From positions 64,001 to 128,000 of the forward strand of contig CAVUWD010000010.1 of NCBI GenBank assembly GCA_963745025.1: DNA of 64,000 bases, written 5' to 3'. The number at the start of each line of letters is the position of its first letter. Position 1 is the stretch's first letter. Shown one piece after another: positions 17,101 through 29,248 of this stretch. The DNA is from an uncultured delta proteobacterium. Lineage in GTDB: Bacteria; Desulfobacterota; Binatia; JACPRU01. A program made the position numbers and the translations under genes. The notes beneath the pieces were generated by a model that saw only the letters and a program-made list of their open reading frames with translations, ran no database searches and was not told where the DNA came from.

Positions 17101-20100
17101 CGCGCGAGGACATCGGGCGGCGGCCGGAGGGTCGGATCGGAGTAGATGACGCGATTGGCGAGGCGCTGGAAGAGATGCGCCTCGTCGGTCCCCACACCGA
17201 GGTGGTGCAGCTGCACCTGAGCCTGCGTCCAAGCGAGCGTGACCACACGCTCGAACGCCGACGGGGCGGAGTACTTGTCGGCGAGGTCGAGGGCCTCGTC
17301 GCGCGTCGAGGCGACCACGGTCGAGAAGGTGACCCGAACGGCAACCCCGGATGGAATCCGGACGCGGCGCCGAAGGCTCACGATCGGGTCGAGGATCGAG
17401 CCAACCGTCCCGGACAATGGCCGTCCGTCGATCACGGACATCGGGGTCCGGATCCCACGCCCGTGCCCGAGAAAGCCTGCTCGGTCGGTTTCGAACTCGA
17501 CCTCCCCGACCGTCTCCCCCTCGACGGCCAGGACATGCGCGGCCCAAATCGGGGCTTCGCCTGCGAGGCGGGACCGGCGGGTCGCGAGAAGCGCCTTCGG
17601 CGAGGCGGCAAACTCCGTCTGGACGAAGAGATTCGAGAAGGCCGGATGAGCGGCGTCGGCGGCGGGCGGCGCGAGAACGATCTCGGCATAAGACGTGAGC
17701 TCGATCTCGCGCGTTCTGAGGCCGCTGTTCGTCAGCGATACGCGGCGCAGCTCCGCATCGTCCTCCGGGGAGACCACGACCTCGAGAGTGGACGTGATCG
17801 CGCCGTCGCGTCGGACGATCTGCGCGCGATCCTCGGAGTAGGCGACTTCATAGGACGTGGGCTCGGCCCCGCTCGGCTGGTATCCCGCGGACCAGACCTC
17901 GCCGCTCGCCACGTCGCGGAGGAAGACGTAGGTGCCCCAGCAGTCGCGCGTGACGTCCTCGCGCCAGCGCGTGACGGCGAGATCCCGCCAGCGGCTATAG
18001 CCCGAGCCCGCCGCCGTGATCATCACGGCGTAGCGCCCGTTCGAGAGGAGATGCGTGCGAGGCGTCGGGTCGTGCGGCGAGTGGAAGCGCCGCACGACCG
18101 GAGGGCCGACGTCGCTCACGCGACTCGCCGCTTCGACCTCCTCGGCGCGCGGTCGGGCGACGAGGGCATCGCGCGGCGTACGCTCCTGCAGCAGGAGCTC
18201 CGTCGCACGGACGATCGGCTCGGCGTGAAAGCGCGCCTGCATGACGGCGCCGGTGAGCACGTTCGCGAGCGCGACGAGCGTCATGCCCTGGTGGTGCGCC
18301 ATGTACGCGCGCACCACGGCCACGGAGGCTCCTTCGGGAACCCGGGTGGCGGTGTAATCGAGCGCCTCGTAGAAGCCGTACCGGCCGCTCCCGCCCGCCG
18401 CCTCGAGGCGCGCGAAGTTTTTCGCTGCGGCCTCCGGGTCGACCATCGCAGCCAGCGCCGTCGCATAGGGTGCGATGACGACGTCCTCGCTGAGACCGCG
18501 CTTCAGCCCGAGTCCCGGGACGCCGAAGCTCGAGTACTGATACGTTTGCTCGAGGTCGCGGGCATTGAAGGCGGACTCCGAGACCCCCCACGCCACTCCC
18601 CGCTTCCGCCCGTACTCGATCTGCCGCCGCACCACGAGCCGGCACGTGAGGTCGAAGAGGCTCGACGGCGGCGAGGAGAGCACGAGGCTCGGCATCAGGT
18701 ACTCGAACATCGAGCCCGACCACGAGACGAGCGCCGATCCCCGACCCACCGGCGTCAGTGCGCGGCCGAGCCGGAACCAGTGTGTGGACGGAACGTCGCC
18801 CTTGGCGATCGCGATGAAGCTCGTGAGCCGGGCCTCGGACGCTAGGAGATCGTAGCAGTTGGGATCGAGGCTGCCGTCGCTCACGCTGTAGCCGATCGCG
18901 AAGAGCTTTCGCGCCGGATCGAAGAGAAAACCGAACTCCATGCCGCGGAAGAGATCGTCGGCGAGCCGGGCGAGCGTCGAGAGGCGCCGGACGAGCGCGC
19001 CGGCCGCACGTTCGGGATCGCCGACCGGCGGCTCGGCCGCACCTGCAATCGCGGCCTCGCAGCGCTCGGCCATCGCGCCGAGGCTCGACATCGATCCCCC
19101 GGTCACGTCGGTCGCGCGCCACGCGGACGCGGATACGAGTTCGAGATCGCGCGCGTGGCTCGCGACGCAGGCGCGCGCGGCCTCCGCCCAGGCAAGGAGC
19201 TCGCGATCGGCCGTGTCGGCGCCGTCCCCGAGGAGAGCACGCGCGACATCGACCACAGTGTCCGCGCTCGCCTGGAGCTCTACCAAGCGAGCGGACCACT
19301 GGACAGGTGTCGGCGGAACGGACTCGAGCCCGGCAGCGAATGCGGTCAGCGCATCGTCCAGGTGCTTTCGGCTCACGAGCTCCGAACGACGCTGGTCGCC
19401 GAGCGCTTCGACCGAGGCCCGAGCGAGGAGCACTGCGTCGAGGATTCCCGCCAGCACCCGGGCGTCGAGGAGCGGCCGGTCGATCAGCTCGCGACACGCG
19501 TTCGACAACGCGAGCAGGTGCCCGGCGAGATTGCCGCTGTCGACCGACGAGACGTACTTCGGCTCGAGCGGGCGAAGATCGCGCGTCCCGTACCAGTTGT
19601 AAAAATGGCCTCGGAAACGCTCGAGGCGGGACATCGTGCCGAGCGTCGCCTCGAGCCGCTCGACCATGTCGACGGTCCCGATCCAGCCAAGATCGCGAGC
19701 GGTGACGGTGGACAGGAGAGCCATGCCGAGGTTCGTGGGCGAGGTACGGTGGGCAACGACCGGATTCGGCTCCTCCTGGAAATTGTCGGGAGGAAGCGCG
19801 TGATCTTCCGCACCGACGAAGGTCTCGAAGAAGCGCCATGTCCGACGCGCAATCAGCCGCAGGGTCCGCGCGTCTTCGGCCGAGAGCCACGGCGCACCCG
19901 CGCCGCGCGGCGGCGAGCTCAGCCAGAGCGCGACCGCGGGCGAAAGTGCCCAGAGAAACAGGAACGGCGTCGCGACGCCGGCGGCCGCGGGGCGTGCTCG
20001 AAGCACGATCACTGCCGCGATCCCTGCGAGCACCGGGGCGCTCGCGAGGCGCACGTACAGGCCTTTCAGCGTGAGATCGACACCGGATCGCGACCGCGCC

Positions 20101-22863
20101 GCCGGTACCCACTCGAGAAGCCGCCGGCGCGTCACGTAGAGCCGAGACGAGGCTCCGCACGACGGCATCGATCATCAACCACGCCTGGTGGGCGAGCATG
20201 GTGACGGCGACCGCGACGTGCGAGACGGCGAGGACGAGGTCCATCGCAACGGCGCGAGCGTGCATCCGCTTCGCGATACCGCGCCGGCGCGGCACGATCC
20301 CGAGGAAGAAGGGCAGAAGGGCCGGGATCGCGATGCTCGCGAGCACGAAGCTCGTCCAGAAGACGGGCAAAGCTCCGGGGAGCGTCCATCCGACGAGGAG
20401 TGTGAGGAAGGCCGCCGGGGCCGACAAGGAACGGCGCAGGTTGTCGAGAATCTTCCACATGCCGATCGACGGGATGCGGGTCCGCACGAGGCGGCCCTCT
20501 CCGTCGCGCGCGTGCCCGAGAACCCATGGCAGAAGCTGCCAGTCGCCACGCGCCCAGCGGTGCTGCCGCACCGCTGCGACCTCGTAGTGCGACGGAAACT
20601 CCTCGAAGAGCTCGACGTCGGTCACGAGGCCCGCTCGCGCGAAGATTCCTTCGAAGAGATCGTGACTGAGGAGCGCATTCTCCGGCACGCGGCCGGCGAG
20701 CGCGGACTCGAACGCGTCGACGTCGTAGATGCCCTTTCCCGTGTACGATCCTTCGTCAAAGAGATCTTGGTACACGTCGGAGACCGTCGACGCGTAGGGA
20801 TCGATGCCCGAGGGACCCGAGAAGATTCTCTGGAATAGCGACCCTTCGCTTCGCGTTGGCAGCGACGACGTCACTCGTGGCTGCAAGAGCCCGTAGCCCT
20901 CGATGACGCGCGACTCGACGGGATCGAACCGCGGGCGATTCAGCGGATGCGCCATCGTTCCGACGAGGCGAACGGCGGTGCCGCGCGTGAGGCGCGTGTC
21001 GGCGTCGAGCGTGACGACGTAGCGGACGTCAGGAGGCACCGCCGGCCCGCCATCGGCGAATGGCACGAACGTCGTGTCCGCTCCGCCGCGGAGAAGCCGG
21101 TTCAGCTCCTGGAGCTTGCCGCGCTTGCGCTCCCAACCCATCCACTTTCGCTCGCTCTCGTTCCAGACGCGGCGTCGGTGGAGAAGAAAGAATCGCCGTC
21201 CGCCCCCCGGGACTGCACCATGGCGGGCGTTCAACCGCGCGATCCCCGCTGTCGCCGCGGCGAGGAGGTCGTCATCGCCGGGCGCATGCTCGACGCTTGA
21301 GTCCGTCCAGTCGGAAAGCAGCCCGAAGTGCAGCGCGCCGTCCGGATTGGCGAGATAGTGCACCTCGAGTCGGTCGATCAGCTCGTGGATCTCATCCTCG
21401 CTCGTGAGAAGGGACGGCATGACGACGATTGTCCGGAGGTTCGCTGGGACGCCGTCCCGAAGCTCGAGCTTCGGCAGCGAGCGAGGGCCGATGAACTCGG
21501 TCACCGCGCGGTTCACGAGCGCCACGGCGAGGTCGGACGCCGGAAAGAGGAGGAGGAGTGCGAGGGGGATTGCCCACGCCAAGCCGATGCCCGCCGCACC
21601 GAGTTGCCAGAGCGGAAACGCGACCAGCACGCCGCTCGCGACGGCGAGGGTGAGCACATAGCCGGGGTTCGCCGTGGTGACGTACGCGCGAAGCAGCCGG
21701 CGCACCGGAGAGATGCGGCAGCCGAGATCCGCCTCGAAGCCGGTCCTCCCCTCCGCGATCAGGTAGTAGCCGGGGTCGCCCTTACGATTTTCCGGGGCGC
21801 CGTCGGCGCCTCGACCCGGCCGCTGGGCGCGCCGCACGGCCTCCGCGCTCACCTCGAGCTCCGAGCGCCCGGACCCCCGCGCGAGCTCCTCGATCGCGTG
21901 GCGGTAGCGGTCGCGCGTCTGGAAGTCCATCGCGGAGAACTCCGCGCCACCGCGCAGGGTCTCGTCGACTAGGCTGACGCTTTCGAAGAAGCTCTCCCAG
22001 TCGAACACCGACATGAACCGCATGCTGGTGATGACGTTTCGCACGGTGACGTTCGCCGCCCCCTGGCTTTGCAGCTCGAGGTCCACGAGCTTGTCCACGG
22101 TCGTCCCCTGCTCCGCGAGGCGGTCGTCGAGCCACCGCAGCGCCGGTATCACTGCGGGATCCTGCTCGCGGAGCCGTTGCGCAAGTTGAACCGCGAACGC
22201 GCGTGTGAGCGGGATACCCTCGAAGCGCCGAAGAGCGGTGGCGGGCGAGAGCTGAGTGCTTCCAGGCGCACCGAGCAGACCGTCCGCGAGCGCGTCGGCC
22301 TCTTCGCGGGCGGCTCGAGACCGAACGATCCGGTCCGCGAGGCGCCGCAGGTTTTCGACCAGGACGATACGGAGCGCGATCGCGATTGCCCAGAGCTCCC
22401 CGATCGTCAGCGGCGCGACCCGCTGGTACGCGCGGACGAAGCGGCGGAGCATCTCAGGATCGAAGCGGCTATCGGTGTGGGCCACGAACGCCCACGCGAT
22501 TCCGAGAACGCGCGGGAATCCCTCCAGATGTCCTTCGGAGAGCTTCGGCAGCTCTCGGTAGAAGCTCGGCGGCAAGTCGTCGTGGATCTCGCGAATCTGC
22601 TCCTCGACGATGTGAAAGTTGTCGACGAGCCATTCGGCGGCCGGCGTGATCGCTCGTTCTTCGCGGATCGCGTGGGCGATGGCCCGGTACGACTCGAAGA
22701 GGACGCGGGCGTTTTCGTCGACCCGTGGCGCGACCCTCCGACCGCGTCGGCGGCCGGTGGCGACCCGCTGCGCCACGGCAAGGCTTTCCGCGTGCTGCTC
22801 GAGACGCTCGATACTGAAGAGCTCTGCTCGGATGGCTTCTTCGCGGTCGGCGAGCACACTCAT
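14181..22863 (-). pseudogene. ndvB: cyclic beta-1,2-glucan synthase (Cgs/NdvB/ChvB; GT84 + GH94 domains) with a single +1 frameshift near 20145 (possibly a sequence error)
   Basis: N-part has WLVDNFHIVEEQI, WERKRGKL, TLDADT, YTGKGIYD, LSHDLFEG, HRWARGDWQL. C-part has [47 protein letters not shown]. Removing one base (GTC-T-CGG) joins them into ~2890 aa. Confidence 0.92.
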
Positions 22864-22990
22864 CGACGACGGACCACCGGACACGGATCGCCAGAATGCG
22901 CTCGCGGAACATCGCACCTCAACCGTTGCTGCGTATACGGACGGACATCTCGGGCAGTGTAGGGAGTTTCAAAAAGTAAAGTTGTCTCGA

Positions 22991-23203: not shown

Positions 23204-23469
23204 CGCGCCCCCCCTGGTCAAGGGTCCGCGAAGCGAGTTCCCGTGGACAGGCAGAAAGGCTTGTGAACGAGTGATCCCGCTGAACGGGCCGGTAAAAAGC
23301 CTATCGTACTCCCGTTATGTTGGAGTTGATAGCGTCACGTCACTTGGGCATCTTCCCGGACGCCCACATACGTAAGCAAAACTGAACCGCCGGTAGCGGC
23401 TCCGAGCGGGAAGCTTGTGTCGTTCGGTCAGCGAGCTCGCAAGTCATGATTGCGTTCGGGAGCAAAGGA

Positions 23470-23485
23470 TGGCACGGTAATGGCA
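23470..23485 (+). promoter_or_regulatory. candidate sigma54 (-24/-12) promoter upstream of the RNA motif and RRM gene
   Basis: TGGCACG-GTAA-TGGCA versus consensus TGGCACG-N4-TTGCW (one mismatch; GG/GC spacing correct). Confidence 0.5.
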
Positions 23486-23597
23486 CTAAGCCTGACTGTC
23501 CGGCGCGAGAAACCCTCCGGTTGTACCGGTTCACGCAAATCCTCCCGCTCGTCACTCTCAGGAAGTCTCGGCAACGACAGCAGGTGTCGGTTGCCGC
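23486..23597 (+). ncRNA. candidate structured cis-regulatory RNA motif, copy 1 (leader of the RRM gene)
   Basis: Shares CCTGACTGTCCGGCGCGAGAA, ACTCTCAGGAAGTCTCGGCAACG and CAGGTGTCG..TTGCCGC with 28426-28533; CCTGA/TCAGG stem plus a GGCAAC..GTTGCC hairpin. Confidence 0.6.
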
Positions 23598-23651
23598 TCG
23601 CCAACTTACCTGAGGCCCGCCGCCAAGGCGGGTTACGAGGAGATCAGCATC

Positions 23652-23942
23652 GTGGGAAAGAAACTCTACATCGGCAATCTCGGCTACGAAGTCACATCCA
23701 AGGATCTGGAGGCGCTGTTCGCCCAGGCTGGCGCTTGCCAATCCGCGACGGTCATCATGGACCGCGATAGCGGCCAGTCTCGGGGGTTCGGCTTCGTGGA
23801 AATGAGCTCCGACGCCGACGCTCAGAAGGCGATCCAGCAGTTCAACGGTCAGGATCTCAAAGGCCGCGCCCTCAAGGTGAACGAGGCGATCGATCGCGGA
23901 AACAATCGCGGTGGAGGCGGGTATTCCGGGAATCGCCGCTAG
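23652..23942 (+). CDS. RRM-domain RNA-binding protein (Gly-rich tail)
   Basis: RNP2 KLYIGNL, RNP1 SRGFGFVEM, GRALKVNEA; RBS GAGGAG, GTG start. Confidence 0.96.
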   Translation: MGKKLYIGNLGYEVTSKDLEALFAQAGACQSATVIMDRDSGQSRGFGFVEMSSDADAQKAIQQFNGQDLKGRALKVNEAIDRGNNRGGGGYSGNRR

Positions 23943-24473: not shown

Positions 24474-24729
24474 TTCCTACGGTTCTGGGGCCTCACTTTG
24501 CTCCGAACTGACACAGAAGGAGCTGCGCCTGCACCGGTGCGCGCGACTTCGTCGATTTTCTTCTCGATGGCCCGGTTGTGCTGAAGAGGCGCCGGCAGCG
24601 GTAGGCGGCGCTTCACCTGCTCGGCGACACGCGCCCAGGGGTCGCGCCCAAGGGTCGCTTGACGGGCGTGGGTGACCCCGGTCTAGTCTCTGGACCGAAG
24701 AGGCGCGGTTGCTCTCGCTCCGCGGAACG

Positions 24730-26049
24730 ATGATTCGATCCGAGCTCGCGATCATTTTGGGCCTGATCCTGCTGAACGGGCTCTTCGCCGGCGCGGAGAT
24801 CGCGCTGCTGACGCTCCGAAAGACGCGGCTTCAGCTGCTCCTCGAGCGGCGGTCGGCAGCGGCACGGGCGGTCGAAGCGCTGCGCAACGAGCCCGAGCGG
24901 TTTCTCGCCACGGTGCAGATCGGGATCACGGTCATCGGGGCCAGCACCGCCGCTTTCGGGGGCGCCTCGCTCGGCCGCGATCTCGGCGAGAGGCTCTCCA
25001 ACCTGCCCGTGATCGGCCCCTTCGGCCACGACATCGCGCTCGCCTGCGTAATCGTTCTGGTGTCCTATTTCTCACTCGTGCTCGGCGAGCTCGTCCCGAA
25101 GTCGATCGCTTTGCGCCATCCGGAGCGTTACGCGCTGATCGCGGGCCGTCCGATCCTCTGGATCTCTTTCGTCGCAAAGCCGCTCGTGTGGTTCTTGACG
25201 GGGAGCTCGAACCTCGTGCTGCGCCCGTTCGGCGACCAGACGTCGTTCGGCGAGTCGCGCCTTTCGCGCGAAGAGCTCCGGCAGCTCGTCGAGGAGGCGG
25301 CAAAGGCGGGAGCCCTCGACCCGCGGAGCGGTGAAATCGCTTCCCGTGCGTTGGAGTTCGGGCAGCTCGCGGCCCGCGACATCATGGTGCCGAGAAGCCA
25401 GATCGATGCGGTCGCGCGCAACGCCTCGCCGGAAGAGGTGAAGACGCTGCTGCTCGAGAGCGGACACTCGCGGATGCCGGTCTACGAGGCAACGCTCGAC
25501 AACATCGTCGGCTACATCAGCGCCAAGGACTTCCTCGCGCTTGCCTGGGAGAGGCAGCTGATCGTGCTGGAGGATCTGATTCGGCCGACCCATTTCGTTC
25601 CCGACAGCGTATCCGCTCCACAACTGCTGAAGGAGCTGCAAAGTCGCCATGCCTCGCTCGCCATCATCGTCAACGAGCACGGGGGAATCGTCGGGCTGGT
25701 GACGCTCGAGGACCTGATCGAGGAGCTCGTCGGCGAGATCTTCACCGAGCACGAGGTTCCCGAGGAGCTCGTGCGGCGCGAGCCCGACGGCAGCGCGCTC
25801 ATCCGCGGCAACGCCCGGATCCGGGAAGTGAACCGCGAGCTGTCGCTCGACCTGCCCGAGGGCGACAGCTCGACGATCGCGGGCCTCTGCACGGACATCG
25901 CGGGTCGGATCCCGCAGCGCGGCACGCGCCTCGAGGTCGCGGACGGCTGTTGGATCGAGGTCGTCGAGGCGTCGCCCCGCCTCGTTCGGCTCGTGCGCCT
26001 GATGCCGGGCCGTGACCGCACGGCGTCCCCCGAGAGCCCGGCGTCTTAG
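24730..26049 (+). CDS. HlyC/CorC (CNNM) family membrane protein with CBS pair and CorC domain
   Basis: NGLFAGAEIA, FLATVQIGIT, GELVPKSIA, GHSRMPVY, GLVTLEDLIEELVGEI. Confidence 0.94.
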   Translation: MIRSELAIILGLILLNGLFAGAEIALLTLRKTRLQLLLERRSAAARAVEALRNEPERFLATVQIGITVIGASTAAFGGASLGRDLGERLSNLPVIGPFGHDIALACVIVLVSYFSLVLGELVPKSIALRHPERYALIAGRPILWISFVAKPLVWFLTGSSNLVLRPFGDQTSFGESRLSREELRQLVEEAAKAGALDPRSGEIASRALEFGQLAARDIMVPRSQIDAVARNASPEEVKTLLLESGHSRMPVYEATLDNIVGYISAKDFLALAWERQLIVLEDLIRPTHFVPDSVSAPQLLKELQSRHASLAIIVNEHGGIVGLVTLEDLIEELVGEIFTEHEVPEELVRREPDGSALIRGNARIREVNRELSLDLPEGDSSTIAGLCTDIAGRIPQRGTRLEVADGCWIEVVEASPRLVRLVRLMPGRDRTASPESPAS

Positions 26050-26440: not shown

Positions 26441-27892
26441 ATGCCCCGGATCGCCGTACTCGGCCTCGACTCTGCTCCGCCGTCGTTCTTCTTCCACCGC
26501 TATCGGAAGGAGATGCCGAACCTGGAGCGACTGATGCGGACCGGCCTGGTCGCCCACCTGGAGTCGACGAACCCGCCGATCACCGTGCCCGCTTGGACCT
26601 CGATGATGTCGAGCAAGGATCCGGGGCAGCTCGGCTTCTACGGGTTCCGCAACCGCAAGGACCACTCTTACGACGGCTACCGGTTCGCCAACGGTTCGCT
26701 GATTCGCGAGCCTCTGGTGTGGGACATCCTCGGACGGCACGGCAAGCGCTCGATCCTGCTCGGCGTGCCGCAGACCTATCCGCCGCGTCCGATCGAGGGC
26801 GAGATGGTCACCTGCTTCCTCACGCCGTCGACCGAGAGTCAGTATACGTACCCCACCTCCCTCAAGGCGGAGGTCGAGCGGGTGACCGGCGGGTACGTCC
26901 TCGACGTTGACGATTTCCGCACGCCCGACAAGGGCGCGCTACTCGGCCGCATCTACGAAAAGACCCGCAAGCACTGGACCCTCGCCAAGCACATGCTCCG
27001 TACCCGGCCGTGGGACTTCTTCATGATCGTGGAGATGGGCGTCGATCGGATTCATCATGGGTTCTGGAGCTACTGCGATCCCGAGCATCACAAGTACGTT
27101 CCCGGCAATCCGTGGGAGCACGCGCTGCGCGACTACTACCGCTACCTCGACGGGGAAATCGGGGAGGTGTTGGAGCTGCTCGGAAAAGACACGATCGTCC
27201 TGGTGGTCTCCGACCACGGATCGAAGAAGATGGACGGGGGTATCTGTATCAACGAATGGCTGATCAACGGCGGCTATCTCAATCTGCTCGAGCGCCCGGC
27301 CGGGCCGACGCCGATCGGCAAGGCGAAGATCGACTGGAAGCACACCCGGGCCTGGGGCGACGGCGGCTATTACGGAAGGCTCTTCATGAACGTCCGTGGG
27401 CGTGAGCCCGAAGGGACGATCGACCCCGCGGACTACGAGCAGGTGAGACGCGAGATCGCAGCCGGAATCGAGGCGATCGCAGATCCGTCCGGACGCAACA
27501 TCGGGTCGAAGGCCTATCGGCCCGAGGACATCTATCGCGCGACCCGTGGTGTGCCGCCCGATCTGATCGTCTATTTCGGAGACCTCGACTGGCGCTCGGT
27601 CGGCTCGGTCGGCATGGGCTCGATCCACACGTTCGAGAACGACACAGGCCCGGACGAATCGAACCACGACTGGCACGGGATCTTCGTGATGAACGACCCG
27701 CGCCACCCCCGACCCGAGCCGGACTTGGACGATCTCCCGGTCTTCCGGATCTACGACGTGGCGCCGACCGTGTTGGCGGCCTTTGGGCTATCCGTGCCCG
27801 AAGACATGATCGGTCGCCCGCGTGTCGAGCCGCCCCGACCGCAGTCGCGCCCCGGCTTCTGGAAGCGGATCCTGCCGTTCGGTGATCCTTGA
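26441..27892 (+). CDS. alkaline phosphatase superfamily protein (type I phosphodiesterase / nucleotide pyrophosphatase-like)
   Basis: VLGLDSA, STNPPITVPAW (Thr nucleophile), DRIHHGFW, VVSDHG, NHDWHGIF, DVAPTVL. Confidence 0.9.
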   Translation: MPRIAVLGLDSAPPSFFFHRYRKEMPNLERLMRTGLVAHLESTNPPITVPAWTSMMSSKDPGQLGFYGFRNRKDHSYDGYRFANGSLIREPLVWDILGRHGKRSILLGVPQTYPPRPIEGEMVTCFLTPSTESQYTYPTSLKAEVERVTGGYVLDVDDFRTPDKGALLGRIYEKTRKHWTLAKHMLRTRPWDFFMIVEMGVDRIHHGFWSYCDPEHHKYVPGNPWEHALRDYYRYLDGEIGEVLELLGKDTIVLVVSDHGSKKMDGGICINEWLINGGYLNLLERPAGPTPIGKAKIDWKHTRAWGDGGYYGRLFMNVRGREPEGTIDPADYEQVRREIAAGIEAIADPSGRNIGSKAYRPEDIYRATRGVPPDLIVYFGDLDWRSVGSVGMGSIHTFENDTGPDESNHDWHGIFVMNDPRHPRPEPDLDDLPVFRIYDVAPTVLAAFGLSVPEDMIGRPRVEPPRPQSRPGFWKRILPFGDP

Positions 27893-28295: not shown

Positions 28296-28412
28296 ATGAC
28301 CGATGACATCGTCGCGATCCAGCAGTTGCTCTATCGGTATTGCACCGCCGTGGACAGGCATGTGCTCGCCACCACCCGTTCTACCAAGATTGCCCCCAAA
28401 CGTGATCAGTGA
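28296..28412 (+). pseudogene. truncated SnoaL/NTF2-like gene (N-terminus only)
   Basis: MTDDIVAIQQLLYRYCTAVDR is typical of the first helix of SnoaL_4-type proteins; the frame ends after 38 aa. Confidence 0.55.
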
Positions 28413-28425
28413 TAGACGTAGTTCG

Positions 28426-28533
28426 CTAATCCTGACTGTCCGGCGCGAGAACCACGCTCTGCGACTCCGGTAGTCACTTTCCCGCACCCTACTCTCAGGA
28501 AGTCTCGGCAACGGTAACAGGTGTCGTTGCCGC
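28426..28533 (+). ncRNA. candidate structured RNA motif, copy 2
   Basis: Same three conserved blocks as 23486-23597; hairpin CGGCAACGGTA-acagg-TGTCGTTGCCG keeps its pairing through G-U wobbles. Confidence 0.6.
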
Positions 28534-28708
28534 AAGGGCCTAGCCTGTAGGCGGTCGTTTCAGCGATCGCTGAAAGGGGGCGCCGTAGGCAGGATAGGCC
28601 TTCGGATGGAGAACCAGGCGGGGCGCTTTTCCCGTAGAAGCGCCACGTCGAGCGAGCAGTAGTTCTCACCATCCGGGAGTCGAGCCAGCTCGGAGCTCAG
28701 GAGATTCG

Positions 28709-29248
28709 ATGCCTTTTCCGCAGGGACCTGTTTCGAAGTTGCGAGCCACTCGAGCAGCACCCGCACAGGCGCGTCACGGTGGTCCTGTCTTCGGCGTCGG
28801 TATGCGCGCGTTCGTGAGCGACGCCGGGAGCCTCAAGGGGCTGGTGGCGCTGAACGATGCCAGCGGCAAGGTGGCTGTGGGTCATCTGGCCGACGGCGCC
28901 GAAGTGGAGATTCTCGCTTGGATACCGCGAAGGGCGGCGACCGTTTATTGCGTTCAGTCTACCGAGAACCATCTCGCAGGCTGGCTCGGGGTCGCGAATC
29001 TCCGAGCGGGCCCAGGCCCGGCGATCATCGGCAGCCCAATGCCGGCGCCGACGCCGCCGGCCTGGATCTCTCTCCTGGCGCCGAGCGCCAAACCGCCGCC
29101 GGCGCATCCGCGGAAAGCGCTCGGGGGGTCTCATTCGGAGGGTCTAACCGGCGCGCAGCGAAGAAGCGAGGAACCGTCGGATGCATTACACCCTGCTCGG
29201 GACGAGGATTCCGGCAAGAGGCCGTACGGAGGACGGGCACACTCATGA
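28709..29248 (+). CDS. hypothetical protein (possible SH3-like beta domain plus Pro-rich tail)
   Basis: RBS AGGAG; the pattern LADGAEVEILAW...YCVQ...GWLGVANL resembles SH3b folds. Confidence 0.6.
   Translation: MPFPQGPVSKLRATRAAPAQARHGGPVFGVGMRAFVSDAGSLKGLVALNDASGKVAVGHLADGAEVEILAWIPRRAATVYCVQSTENHLAGWLGVANLRAGPGPAIIGSPMPAPTPPAWISLLAPSAKPPPAHPRKALGGSHSEGLTGAQRRSEEPSDALHPARDEDSGKRPYGGRAHS

Follow-up and report, generated by a model that had tools for sequence, protein, structure and literature searches.

The 64-kb window, which is the whole stretch of DNA analysed here, contains two copies of a conserved leader that adjoins a promoter, is in part structured and, in Binatia-type soil bacteria, heads several unrelated mRNAs per genome, most commonly that of an RRM protein. 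We give a probability of about one half to the reading that this motif is a cis-acting, lineage-restricted structured 5' leader of an RRM-centred regulon, which is probably under feedback or cold control and for which we infer the mechanism set out below. The leader would probably control how much of the RRM protein, and of the other leader-bearing proteins, is made.

The original prediction started from two sequence blocks shared by two non-coding regions of the window, here called copies A and B, which are spaced 4.9 kb apart. A scan of the window recovered both blocks exactly where they had been reported, with two occurrences each: the 21-nt block CCTGACTGTCCGGCGCGAGAA at 23491-23511 and 28431-28451, and the 23-nt block ACTCTCAGGAAGTCTCGGCAACG at 23554-23576 and 28491-28513, all on the + strand. 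Neither block has a third match in the 64-kb window, even if up to three mismatches are allowed, and no match occurred in any of 100 shuffled windows (chance expectation 0). Pairwise alignment of the two copies displays the divergence of the middle and the flanks between the conserved blocks, and the 3' hairpin does keep its pairing despite substitutions (CGGCAACGACA/UGUCG(G)UUGCCG in copy A, CGGCAACGGUA/UGUCGUUGCCG in copy B). Each copy stands in intergenic DNA, copy A 90 nt 5' of a gene for a 96-aa RRM protein (GTG 23652-23942) and copy B 5' of an ORF of 179 aa (28709-29248).

All parts of copy A are on the + strand. A predicted promoter, identified through cross-copy conservation (-35 TTGCGT at 23450-23455, 17-nt spacer, extended -10 TGGCACGGT at 23470-23478), is followed by the 5' domain (23491-23562; arms CCUGACUGUCCGGCGCGAGAA and CCUCCCGCUCGUCACUCUCAGG; 67 bits with CM R2). 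The hairpin of this domain pairs P1 CCUGA/UCAGG, GU/AC, GG/CC, GCG/CGC and GA/UC and ends in the variable tip CCGG-UUGUA-CCGG. Next come the P4 hairpin with its conserved CAGG loop (23569-23596; CGGCAACGACA-GCAGG-UGUCGGUUGCCG) and an ACCUGAG (23608-23614), the second partner of the central CUCAGG (from 23557), in an alternative helix that encloses P4. A GC-rich hairpin (23615-23633; CCCGCC-GCCAA-GGCGGG) stands directly 5' of the ribosome-binding site, and the Shine-Dalgarno (SD) sequence GAGGAG (23638-23643) and the RRM gene complete the arrangement (23638-23942). Copy B, also on the + strand, is built alike, with a predicted promoter at 28390-28418 (-35 TTGCCC at 28390-28395, 17-nt spacer, TG and TAGACG at 28410-28418), a 5' domain at 28431-28499 (CCUGACUGUCCGGCGCGAGAA ... 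UUUCCCGCACCCUACUCUCAGG; 70.7 bits with CM R2), a P4 hairpin at 28506-28532 (CGGCAACGGUA-ACAGG-UGUCGUUGCCG) and a GCCUG at 28543-28547, a weaker counterpart of the downstream CCUGAG partner. Its downstream gene (28709-29248) encodes a 179-aa protein of no known family (PVFGVG...DGAEVEI.AW.PRR). Between the copies lie a gene for a CNNM/CBS/CorC-type transporter (24709-26049, +) and one for a type I phosphodiesterase / nucleotide pyrophosphatase (26441-27892, +); no link to the motif was seen for either. The window also holds a 1640-aa open frame at 17995-22917 (-), which matches no Pfam family at E≤1e-4 and may be either a novel protein of very large size or a frame that is open by chance in GC-rich sequence.

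The position of the motif is that of a cis-leader. In 43 aligned upstream regions we found a sigma-70-like promoter with a -35 TTG, a 17-18-nt spacer and an extended -10 TGnTAnnnT, in which TTG and TGnTA are each kept in at least 80% of the rows. The extended -10 ends ~13 nt 5' of the first conserved base of the motif. The promoter call for copy A rests on this multi-copy alignment, because a strict sigma-70 consensus scan finds no promoter 5' of it. The predicted transcription starts are ~23485 for copy A and ~28425 for copy B. This gives copy A a predicted leader of ~167 nt, and the motif hairpin begins ~6 nt from the predicted 5' end. Each copy lies 3' of the conserved promoter and on the strand of the next gene, between promoter and start codon, and all 54 genome-derived copies have a same-strand ORF start within 520 nt of the motif. 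No U-tract or intrinsic terminator was seen 3' of the motif hairpins in the leader sequences that we read.

Four contigs, each from a metatranscriptome library of a different study, run from the motif into the RRM coding sequence and show 1-5 differences from the window (23498-23863, 23500-23674, 23504-23737 and 23508-23780). They show the motif and the RRM gene on one assembled RNA-library molecule, although such contigs alone do not prove transcription. Their ends cluster at 23498-23508, 13-23 nt 3' of the predicted start, which gives a weak hint of a start site near 23485. The four libraries have no contig cover over 23250-23497, an absence that proves nothing.

Outside the window, and in the genomes sampled, the leader is found in part of one class. 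The genome of origin has four copies, namely A, B, one on contig 18 and one on contig 11, and BLAST found relatives in 6 of the 8 genomes of the family. Two covariance models were used, CM R1 from 12 family sequences and CM R2 from 42 diverse 5' domains. R2 detected the motif in 20 of the 151 genomes sampled from the class, distributed over f1, the family of the window (5/7), f10 (7/17), f11 (3/8), f18 (2/2), f19 (1/2) and f5 (1/3), and it was absent from twelve other families in the same sample. A wider sample of f10 gave 9 of 19 genomes, and R2 matched nothing in 146 genomes sampled from the rest of the phylum. Motif-bearing genomes hold 1-5 copies, and copies stand at orthologous RRM genes in different families.

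A degenerate pattern scan with one genome per species returned 47 loci, 28 of which also match R1. Most of these 28 come from records labelled Candidatus Binatia or uncultured delta proteobacterium, and a few from records labelled Myxococcales or Margulisiibacteriota. The other 19 loci (Streptomyces, Nocardia, Rhodovulum and others) have no CM match and were rejected as chance occurrences in GC-rich DNA. Two identical loci from a MAG labelled Actinomycetes (L071 and L076, 25 bits) are without the 3' arm of P1 and were left out of all counts. The same kind of scan in metagenomes gave at least 80 loci; among the matches listed, 42 match R2 strongly and 38 are without a strong CM match. De-duplication left 54 distinct genome-derived copies and at least 38 metagenome-derived copies.

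The gene that follows the leader is most often an RRM gene. It is next 3' of the motif in 39 of the 54 genome copies and, among the matches listed, in 29 of 38 metagenome copies (27 recognised by pattern, 2 by eye), which makes 68 of 92 copies with the metagenome part counted among the matches listed. The RRM protein behind copy A matches Pfam RRM_1 (E 7.6e-22) and NCBIfam NF058537 Rbp_regulator (103.9 bits, cut-off 100), and the leader thus stands on the mRNA of an RNA-binding protein. RRM genes are near-universal in the class. RRM_1 occurs in 146 of the 151 sampled genomes, a count that includes the unpublished genome G086, and usually several times per genome. The genome of origin has three RRM matches, and the motif was found 5' of only one of them. 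Since RRM genes are this widespread and only one of three is preceded by the motif, the leader thus marks one RRM paralogue in a subset of families. In two loci a cold-shock-domain (CSD) gene lies directly 3' of the leader-bearing RRM gene (L053 835-1146 (-) and L055 915-1115 (-); CSD E 3e-29), and the csp gene of L053 has a sub-threshold match to the Rfam cspA model (57.2 bits, gathering score 78).

The remaining 15 of the 54 genome copies head a mixed set of genes. Five precede a B12-binding radical-SAM protein that scores below every NCBIfam cut-off, three a 63-67-aa protein of no family, two a protein of the type found downstream of copy B and two a large unknown protein; a zinc-ribbon-like ORF, the L078 protein and a small zinc-ribbon protein follow one copy each. 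The non-RRM metagenome copies among the matches listed fall into the same gene classes. In the 99%-complete genome G075 there are two copies of the motif and neither is 5' of an RRM gene. The protein downstream of copy B (28709-29248) has no match in Pfam or NCBIfam. Its Atlas neighbours, with scores of 0.92-0.94, hint at a bacterial SH3-like domain, which we treat as a lead only.

Relatives of this protein (PVFGVG...DGxEVEI.AW.PRG) travel with the RRM operon in L029, L035, L039, L080, L082 and L085. Their gene follows the RRM gene in L029, L080, L082 and L085, and in L035 it comes directly after the leader. In L035 (contig 3 of genome G007) a remnant of an RRM gene start, AAUGGUGUACUUUGGGAAAGC, recognisable by comparison with L029, is found ~120-160 nt 3' of the motif and separates the leader from the SH3-like gene, which points to loss of the RRM gene from a duplicated operon. 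As the copy-B-type gene is second in RRM operons and L035 keeps an RRM remnant, some of the non-RRM associations probably go back to duplicated leader-RRM operons that later lost their RRM gene.

The universal part of the leader is a 5' domain of 50-86 nt with a core of ~75 nt, in which invariant arms flank a spacer or tip of variable length. Its consensus reads (C)CUGA-yU-GU-CC-GG-C-GCG-A-GAA, variable tip, UUC-C-CGC-A-CC-yy-AC-nU-UCAG(G). The arms could pair into a long, imperfect hairpin through P1 CUGA/UCAG and then GU/AC, GG/CC, GCG/CGC and GA/UC, with the helices split by conserved C.A and A.C mismatches and small loops, including a CC/YY loop. These unpaired and mismatched positions are extremely conserved beside a tip of variable length. 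In a MAFFT alignment of 53 sequences, 89.1% of 778 cells can pair, compared with 34-47% when the partners are slid by 1-3 columns. The count from 90 sequences, with metagenome rows taken from among the matches listed, agrees with this; it says nothing new about P2, because the metagenome search pattern fixes the P2 sequence.

With a sequence this close to invariant, the 5' domain offers little covariation. Five pairs have changed on both sides, a value that 20 of 500 shuffles reach. The number of cells with a change on both sides is reached by 199 of 500 shuffles and is no better than shuffled data, and the covariation score is 0.087 in the true register and 0.091 in the register slid by +3, with most pairs never varying. 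Independent compensatory events do occur, namely CCCGA/UCGGG in L043, CGGA/UCCG in L129, G-C to G-U to A-U in L142 and L144, and C-G to G-C in L039. Given that most pairs are invariant, that shuffles equal the cells with double changes and that a slid register equals the score, the predicted 5' hairpin is modestly supported; the alignment is consistent with the structure and does not prove it.

Folding of the 5' domain in isolation returned the model hairpin as the predicted structure for most copies, with mean pair probabilities over 42 sequences of 0.72 for P1, 0.73 for GU/AC and 0.49 for P2. Copy B, folded by itself, has the model hairpin as its minimum-energy structure (P1 0.96, P2 0.93). 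Folding energies of single copies are ordinary (z -0.77 for copy A and -1.35 for copy B), as are those of the full leaders (z -0.69 and -1.48). Several features point to RNA and not to a DNA site. Frequent G-U pairs in the motif helices fix the RNA strand, compensatory changes occur, and the spacer varies in length while the arms keep their sequence, which fits the tip of a hairpin and not a dimeric DNA site.

Downstream of the 5' domain, a P4 hairpin with a conserved (A)CAGG loop was judged present in 29 of the first 43 copies. Across these 29 sequences 82% of cells pair, compared with 26-52% in slid registers, 6 of 11 pairs have changed on both sides and none of 500 shuffles reaches the observed score. 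On this comparison of sequences the predicted P4 structure is clearly supported by covariation. In f1, the CUCUCAGG that takes part in P1 has a possible second partner, a downstream CCUGAG(AG), in a helix that encloses P4, and the full-leader fold of copy A adopts this UCAGG:CCUGAG helix. Its predicted probability is 0.62-1.0, with P1 at ~0, in all five f1 leaders tested. In the pair count over 12 sequences its core never varies and one pair has a double change. Since the CCUGAG pairs with the same UCAGG as P1, two mutually exclusive folds are predicted for the f1 leaders, one with the 5' CCUGA:UCAGG helix and one with UCAGG:CCUGAG-3'. The former is possible once the 5' domain has been made, the latter only after the 3' partner has been transcribed. 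Equilibrium folds of 12 full-length RRM leaders likewise put the probability of P1 at ~0, and at 5, 25 and 37 °C they revealed no shift between the helices or in SD accessibility.

Neither P4 nor the CCUGAG is universal, and other families carry different downstream parts. Many RRM leaders have a GC-rich tetraloop hairpin 5' of the SD, read by eye, in which compensating changes were seen, also by eye (GGUCGC/GCGACC, GGCCGC/GCGGCC, GACCGC/GCGGUC and GGCCAC/GUGGCC). The alternative pairings CGAGA/TCTCG and GACT/AGTC put forward in the original prediction did not hold up, because their 3' partners (AGUCUCGG) are conserved only in f1; the real competitor is UCAGG/CCUGAG. Three further pairings were rejected. 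A pseudoknot between the CAGG of the P4 loop and a downstream CCUG has four pairs that are invariant in f1 and fail elsewhere (76% paired, one double change). Pairing of the 3'-arm CCUCC with the SD could form 4-5 bp at most, and in f1 copies, B among them, UUUCCC replaces the CCUCC. Two minimum-energy folds joined the 5' arm to the spacer that precedes the AUG or to the LYVGN codons; this pairing was treated as chance, because the partner sequence varies (UUCGUGC, UUCAUGC, UUCAGGC).

The motif had been described as no recognisable riboswitch, and Rfam agrees that it belongs to no known family. Rfam 15 gave no match at the gathering score on the 64-kb window, cmscan with all 4227 models gave none at E≤10 on 23350-23700 and 28350-28700, and none was obtained at E≤0.1 on the motif in six further loci. 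A literature search for RNA motifs in Binatia or Binatota found no paper among the matches listed. The motif is a previously uncatalogued, lineage-restricted leader RNA. The nearest described element is Chlorobi-RRM (RF01697, Weinberg et al. 2010), which a table of PMC2864571 lists as a cis-regulatory candidate RNA upstream of genes of RRM-domain proteins; a full-text search for the name led to this paper only. Both are restricted to one phylum and associated with RRM genes. However, Chlorobi-RRM belongs to another phylum, and the Rfam models detect no similarity in sequence or structure; the present leader also heads non-RRM genes. Lineage-specific cis-regulatory leaders of RNA-binding-protein genes are a known kind of element, of which this leader is a new instance.

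The autoregulatory leaders of ribosomal-protein and other genes are structured and let an RNA-binding protein repress the mRNA that encodes it; they usually mimic a known rRNA or tRNA site. The Binatia leader is a candidate for the same logic. The cold box of E. coli cspA is a conserved element at the extreme 5' end that is common to several genes of one stress regulon. The thermoregulatory cspA 5' UTR (RF01766) resembles the present leader in being a long UTR on the mRNA of a small nucleic-acid chaperone, with a shared 5'-terminal element and alternative folds, which for the present leader are predicted. It differs in that there is no homology; the sole RF01766 match falls on the csp gene of L053 and not on the motif. 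The length of the cspA 5' UTR is 159 nt and it is subject to feedback by the encoded protein, as quoted in a passage of PMC13370968. In the sections of this preprint that treat them, the Bacteroides RRM-1 proteins (rbpA/B/C) are cold-induced, have 5' UTRs of 122-155 nt and exert redundant negative feedback, partly through the 5' UTR (PMC13370968). They come from an unrelated phylum, and those sections define no conserved RNA motif, whereas the Binatia leader is a defined, nearly invariant element common to other genes.

We propose the following model for the RRM-centred regulon. The 5' arms would fold into the long imperfect hairpin as soon as they are transcribed, and a trans-acting factor would read this hairpin. 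For this role the RRM protein itself is the likeliest candidate, perhaps alongside proteins with a cold-shock domain. A protein reader is favoured because the commonest gene encodes an RNA-binding protein and because loops and mismatches are as conserved as pairs; for the RRM protein in particular, the association of genes is what points to it. Binding could then provide negative feedback and co-regulate a small regulon of leader-bearing mRNAs. In f1, binding or release may shift the leader between the exclusive folds CCUGA:UCAGG and UCAGG:CCUGAG, and such a shift may change translation or mRNA stability. By analogy with Bacteroides RRM-1 and cspA, a drop in temperature or a stress akin to it is the probable natural signal, and the CSD genes in the operon point the same way.

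Several other readings have to be weighed against this model. The leader might be a riboswitch, in which a small molecule, an ion or a signalling nucleotide is bound by an aptamer made up of the invariant loops of the 5' hairpin, and P4, the competing CCUGAG and the pre-SD hairpin serve as lineage-specific expression platforms. The extreme conservation of the C.A and A.C mismatches and the CC/YY loop beside a tip of variable length would suit an aptamer, as would a conserved core followed by family-specific structures and, in f1, a helix that excludes P1. Heterogeneous controlled genes are also what second-messenger riboswitches have. We nevertheless regard this reading as rather unlikely, given that the dominant gene (68 of 92 copies, the metagenome part among the matches listed) encodes an RNA-binding protein and not a transporter or biosynthetic enzyme, that the genes (RRM, B12/radical-SAM enzyme, small unknown proteins, CSD in second place) have no metabolic theme, and that the leader has neither an intrinsic terminator 3' of the motif nor any similarity to an Rfam riboswitch. 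Temperature could also act without a protein, as in a thermosensor of the cspA type, where temperature or the co-transcriptional folding path exposes or hides the ribosome-binding site. Alternative helices exist, the helix is imperfect and rich in mismatches, and cold-shock-domain genes share the operon in L053 and L055. RRM proteins are reportedly cold-induced in cyanobacteria (Sato 1994 and 1995, as listed among the references of PMC12232666). The ~167-nt 5' UTR of copy A is comparable to the 159 nt quoted for cspA, and cold induction of RRM proteins is described for Bacteroides in a part of PMC13370968. However, the equilibrium folds predicted no temperature-dependent shift in helices or SD accessibility between 5 and 37 °C, and a pure thermometer needs pairing strength and not near-invariant loops and mismatches; we consider it improbable.

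A simpler role would be that of a 5'-terminal stabiliser or processing element, in which the hairpin sets the half-life of the mRNA by RNase protection or entry and senses no signal. The location of the hairpin ~6 nt from the predicted 5' end, the lack of a terminator after it and the unrelated nature of the mRNAs that it heads would all fit. Such an element needs neither invariance of sequence across families nor a competing downstream helix, and we judge this role to be quite improbable. The readings at the level of DNA, as promoter-proximal operator sites or as remnants of REP, MITE or IS ends, can draw on the location of the blocks directly 3' of the promoter and on the arms being an inverted repeat. 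They are disfavoured, and to us very improbable, since the spacing of the arms varies (core 50-86 nt), the G-U pairs and compensatory changes are strand-specific and RNA-library contigs cover the motif. The copies number 1-5 per genome, are always oriented with the downstream gene and recur at orthologous RRM loci across families, which agrees with the original view that they are not the ends of mobile elements. The same view preferred a selected RNA element over a neutral duplication, and this is borne out by the homologues in 20 of 151 genomes of the class, the constant promoter-proximal position and the covariation of P4.

Single-RRM proteins are widespread in bacteria. In PMC13370968 such proteins are newly seen as post-transcriptional regulators that resemble cold-shock proteins and feed back through long 5' UTRs. 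As the leader of the proposed RRM-centred regulon is a compact, almost invariant element that is tied to one RRM paralogue and also present at a few other genes, it supplies a concrete candidate for a binding site and one for a regulon. The candidate site is amenable to in vitro work without culturing the organism. A bolder reading, which we hold only tentatively, is that the 5' hairpin is the cognate high-affinity site of a single-RRM protein, or the aptamer of a new class of stress-signal riboswitch, and would thereby act as the operator through which uncultured Binatia run a dedicated, post-transcriptional regulon for stress or cold. If true, bacterial RRM regulators would have their first defined RNA recognition element. 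The main value of the leader lies in this defined candidate recognition element, and it adds an uncatalogued structured RNA family to a phylum known only from metagenomes.

Individual loci vary in their arrangement. In G007 two leader copies lie 14 kb apart, comparable to the two copies in the window at a distance of 4.9 kb. The B12/radical-SAM gene behind the fourth leader copy of the genome of origin (L045, contig 11, ~570110-571700) begins with MRVFLVHVRDPQFYALP..., runs for ~40 codons and then continues in another frame (ORFs +68 and +115), which may reflect a frameshift or an error in the MAG assembly. Shortened leaders are found in genus g38 (L130, L131 and L132), where CUGA..GUCCGGCGCG and CGCUCCCCGCAUUCAG are kept without the AGAA/UCCC top of the helix; all three lie 5' of RRM genes.
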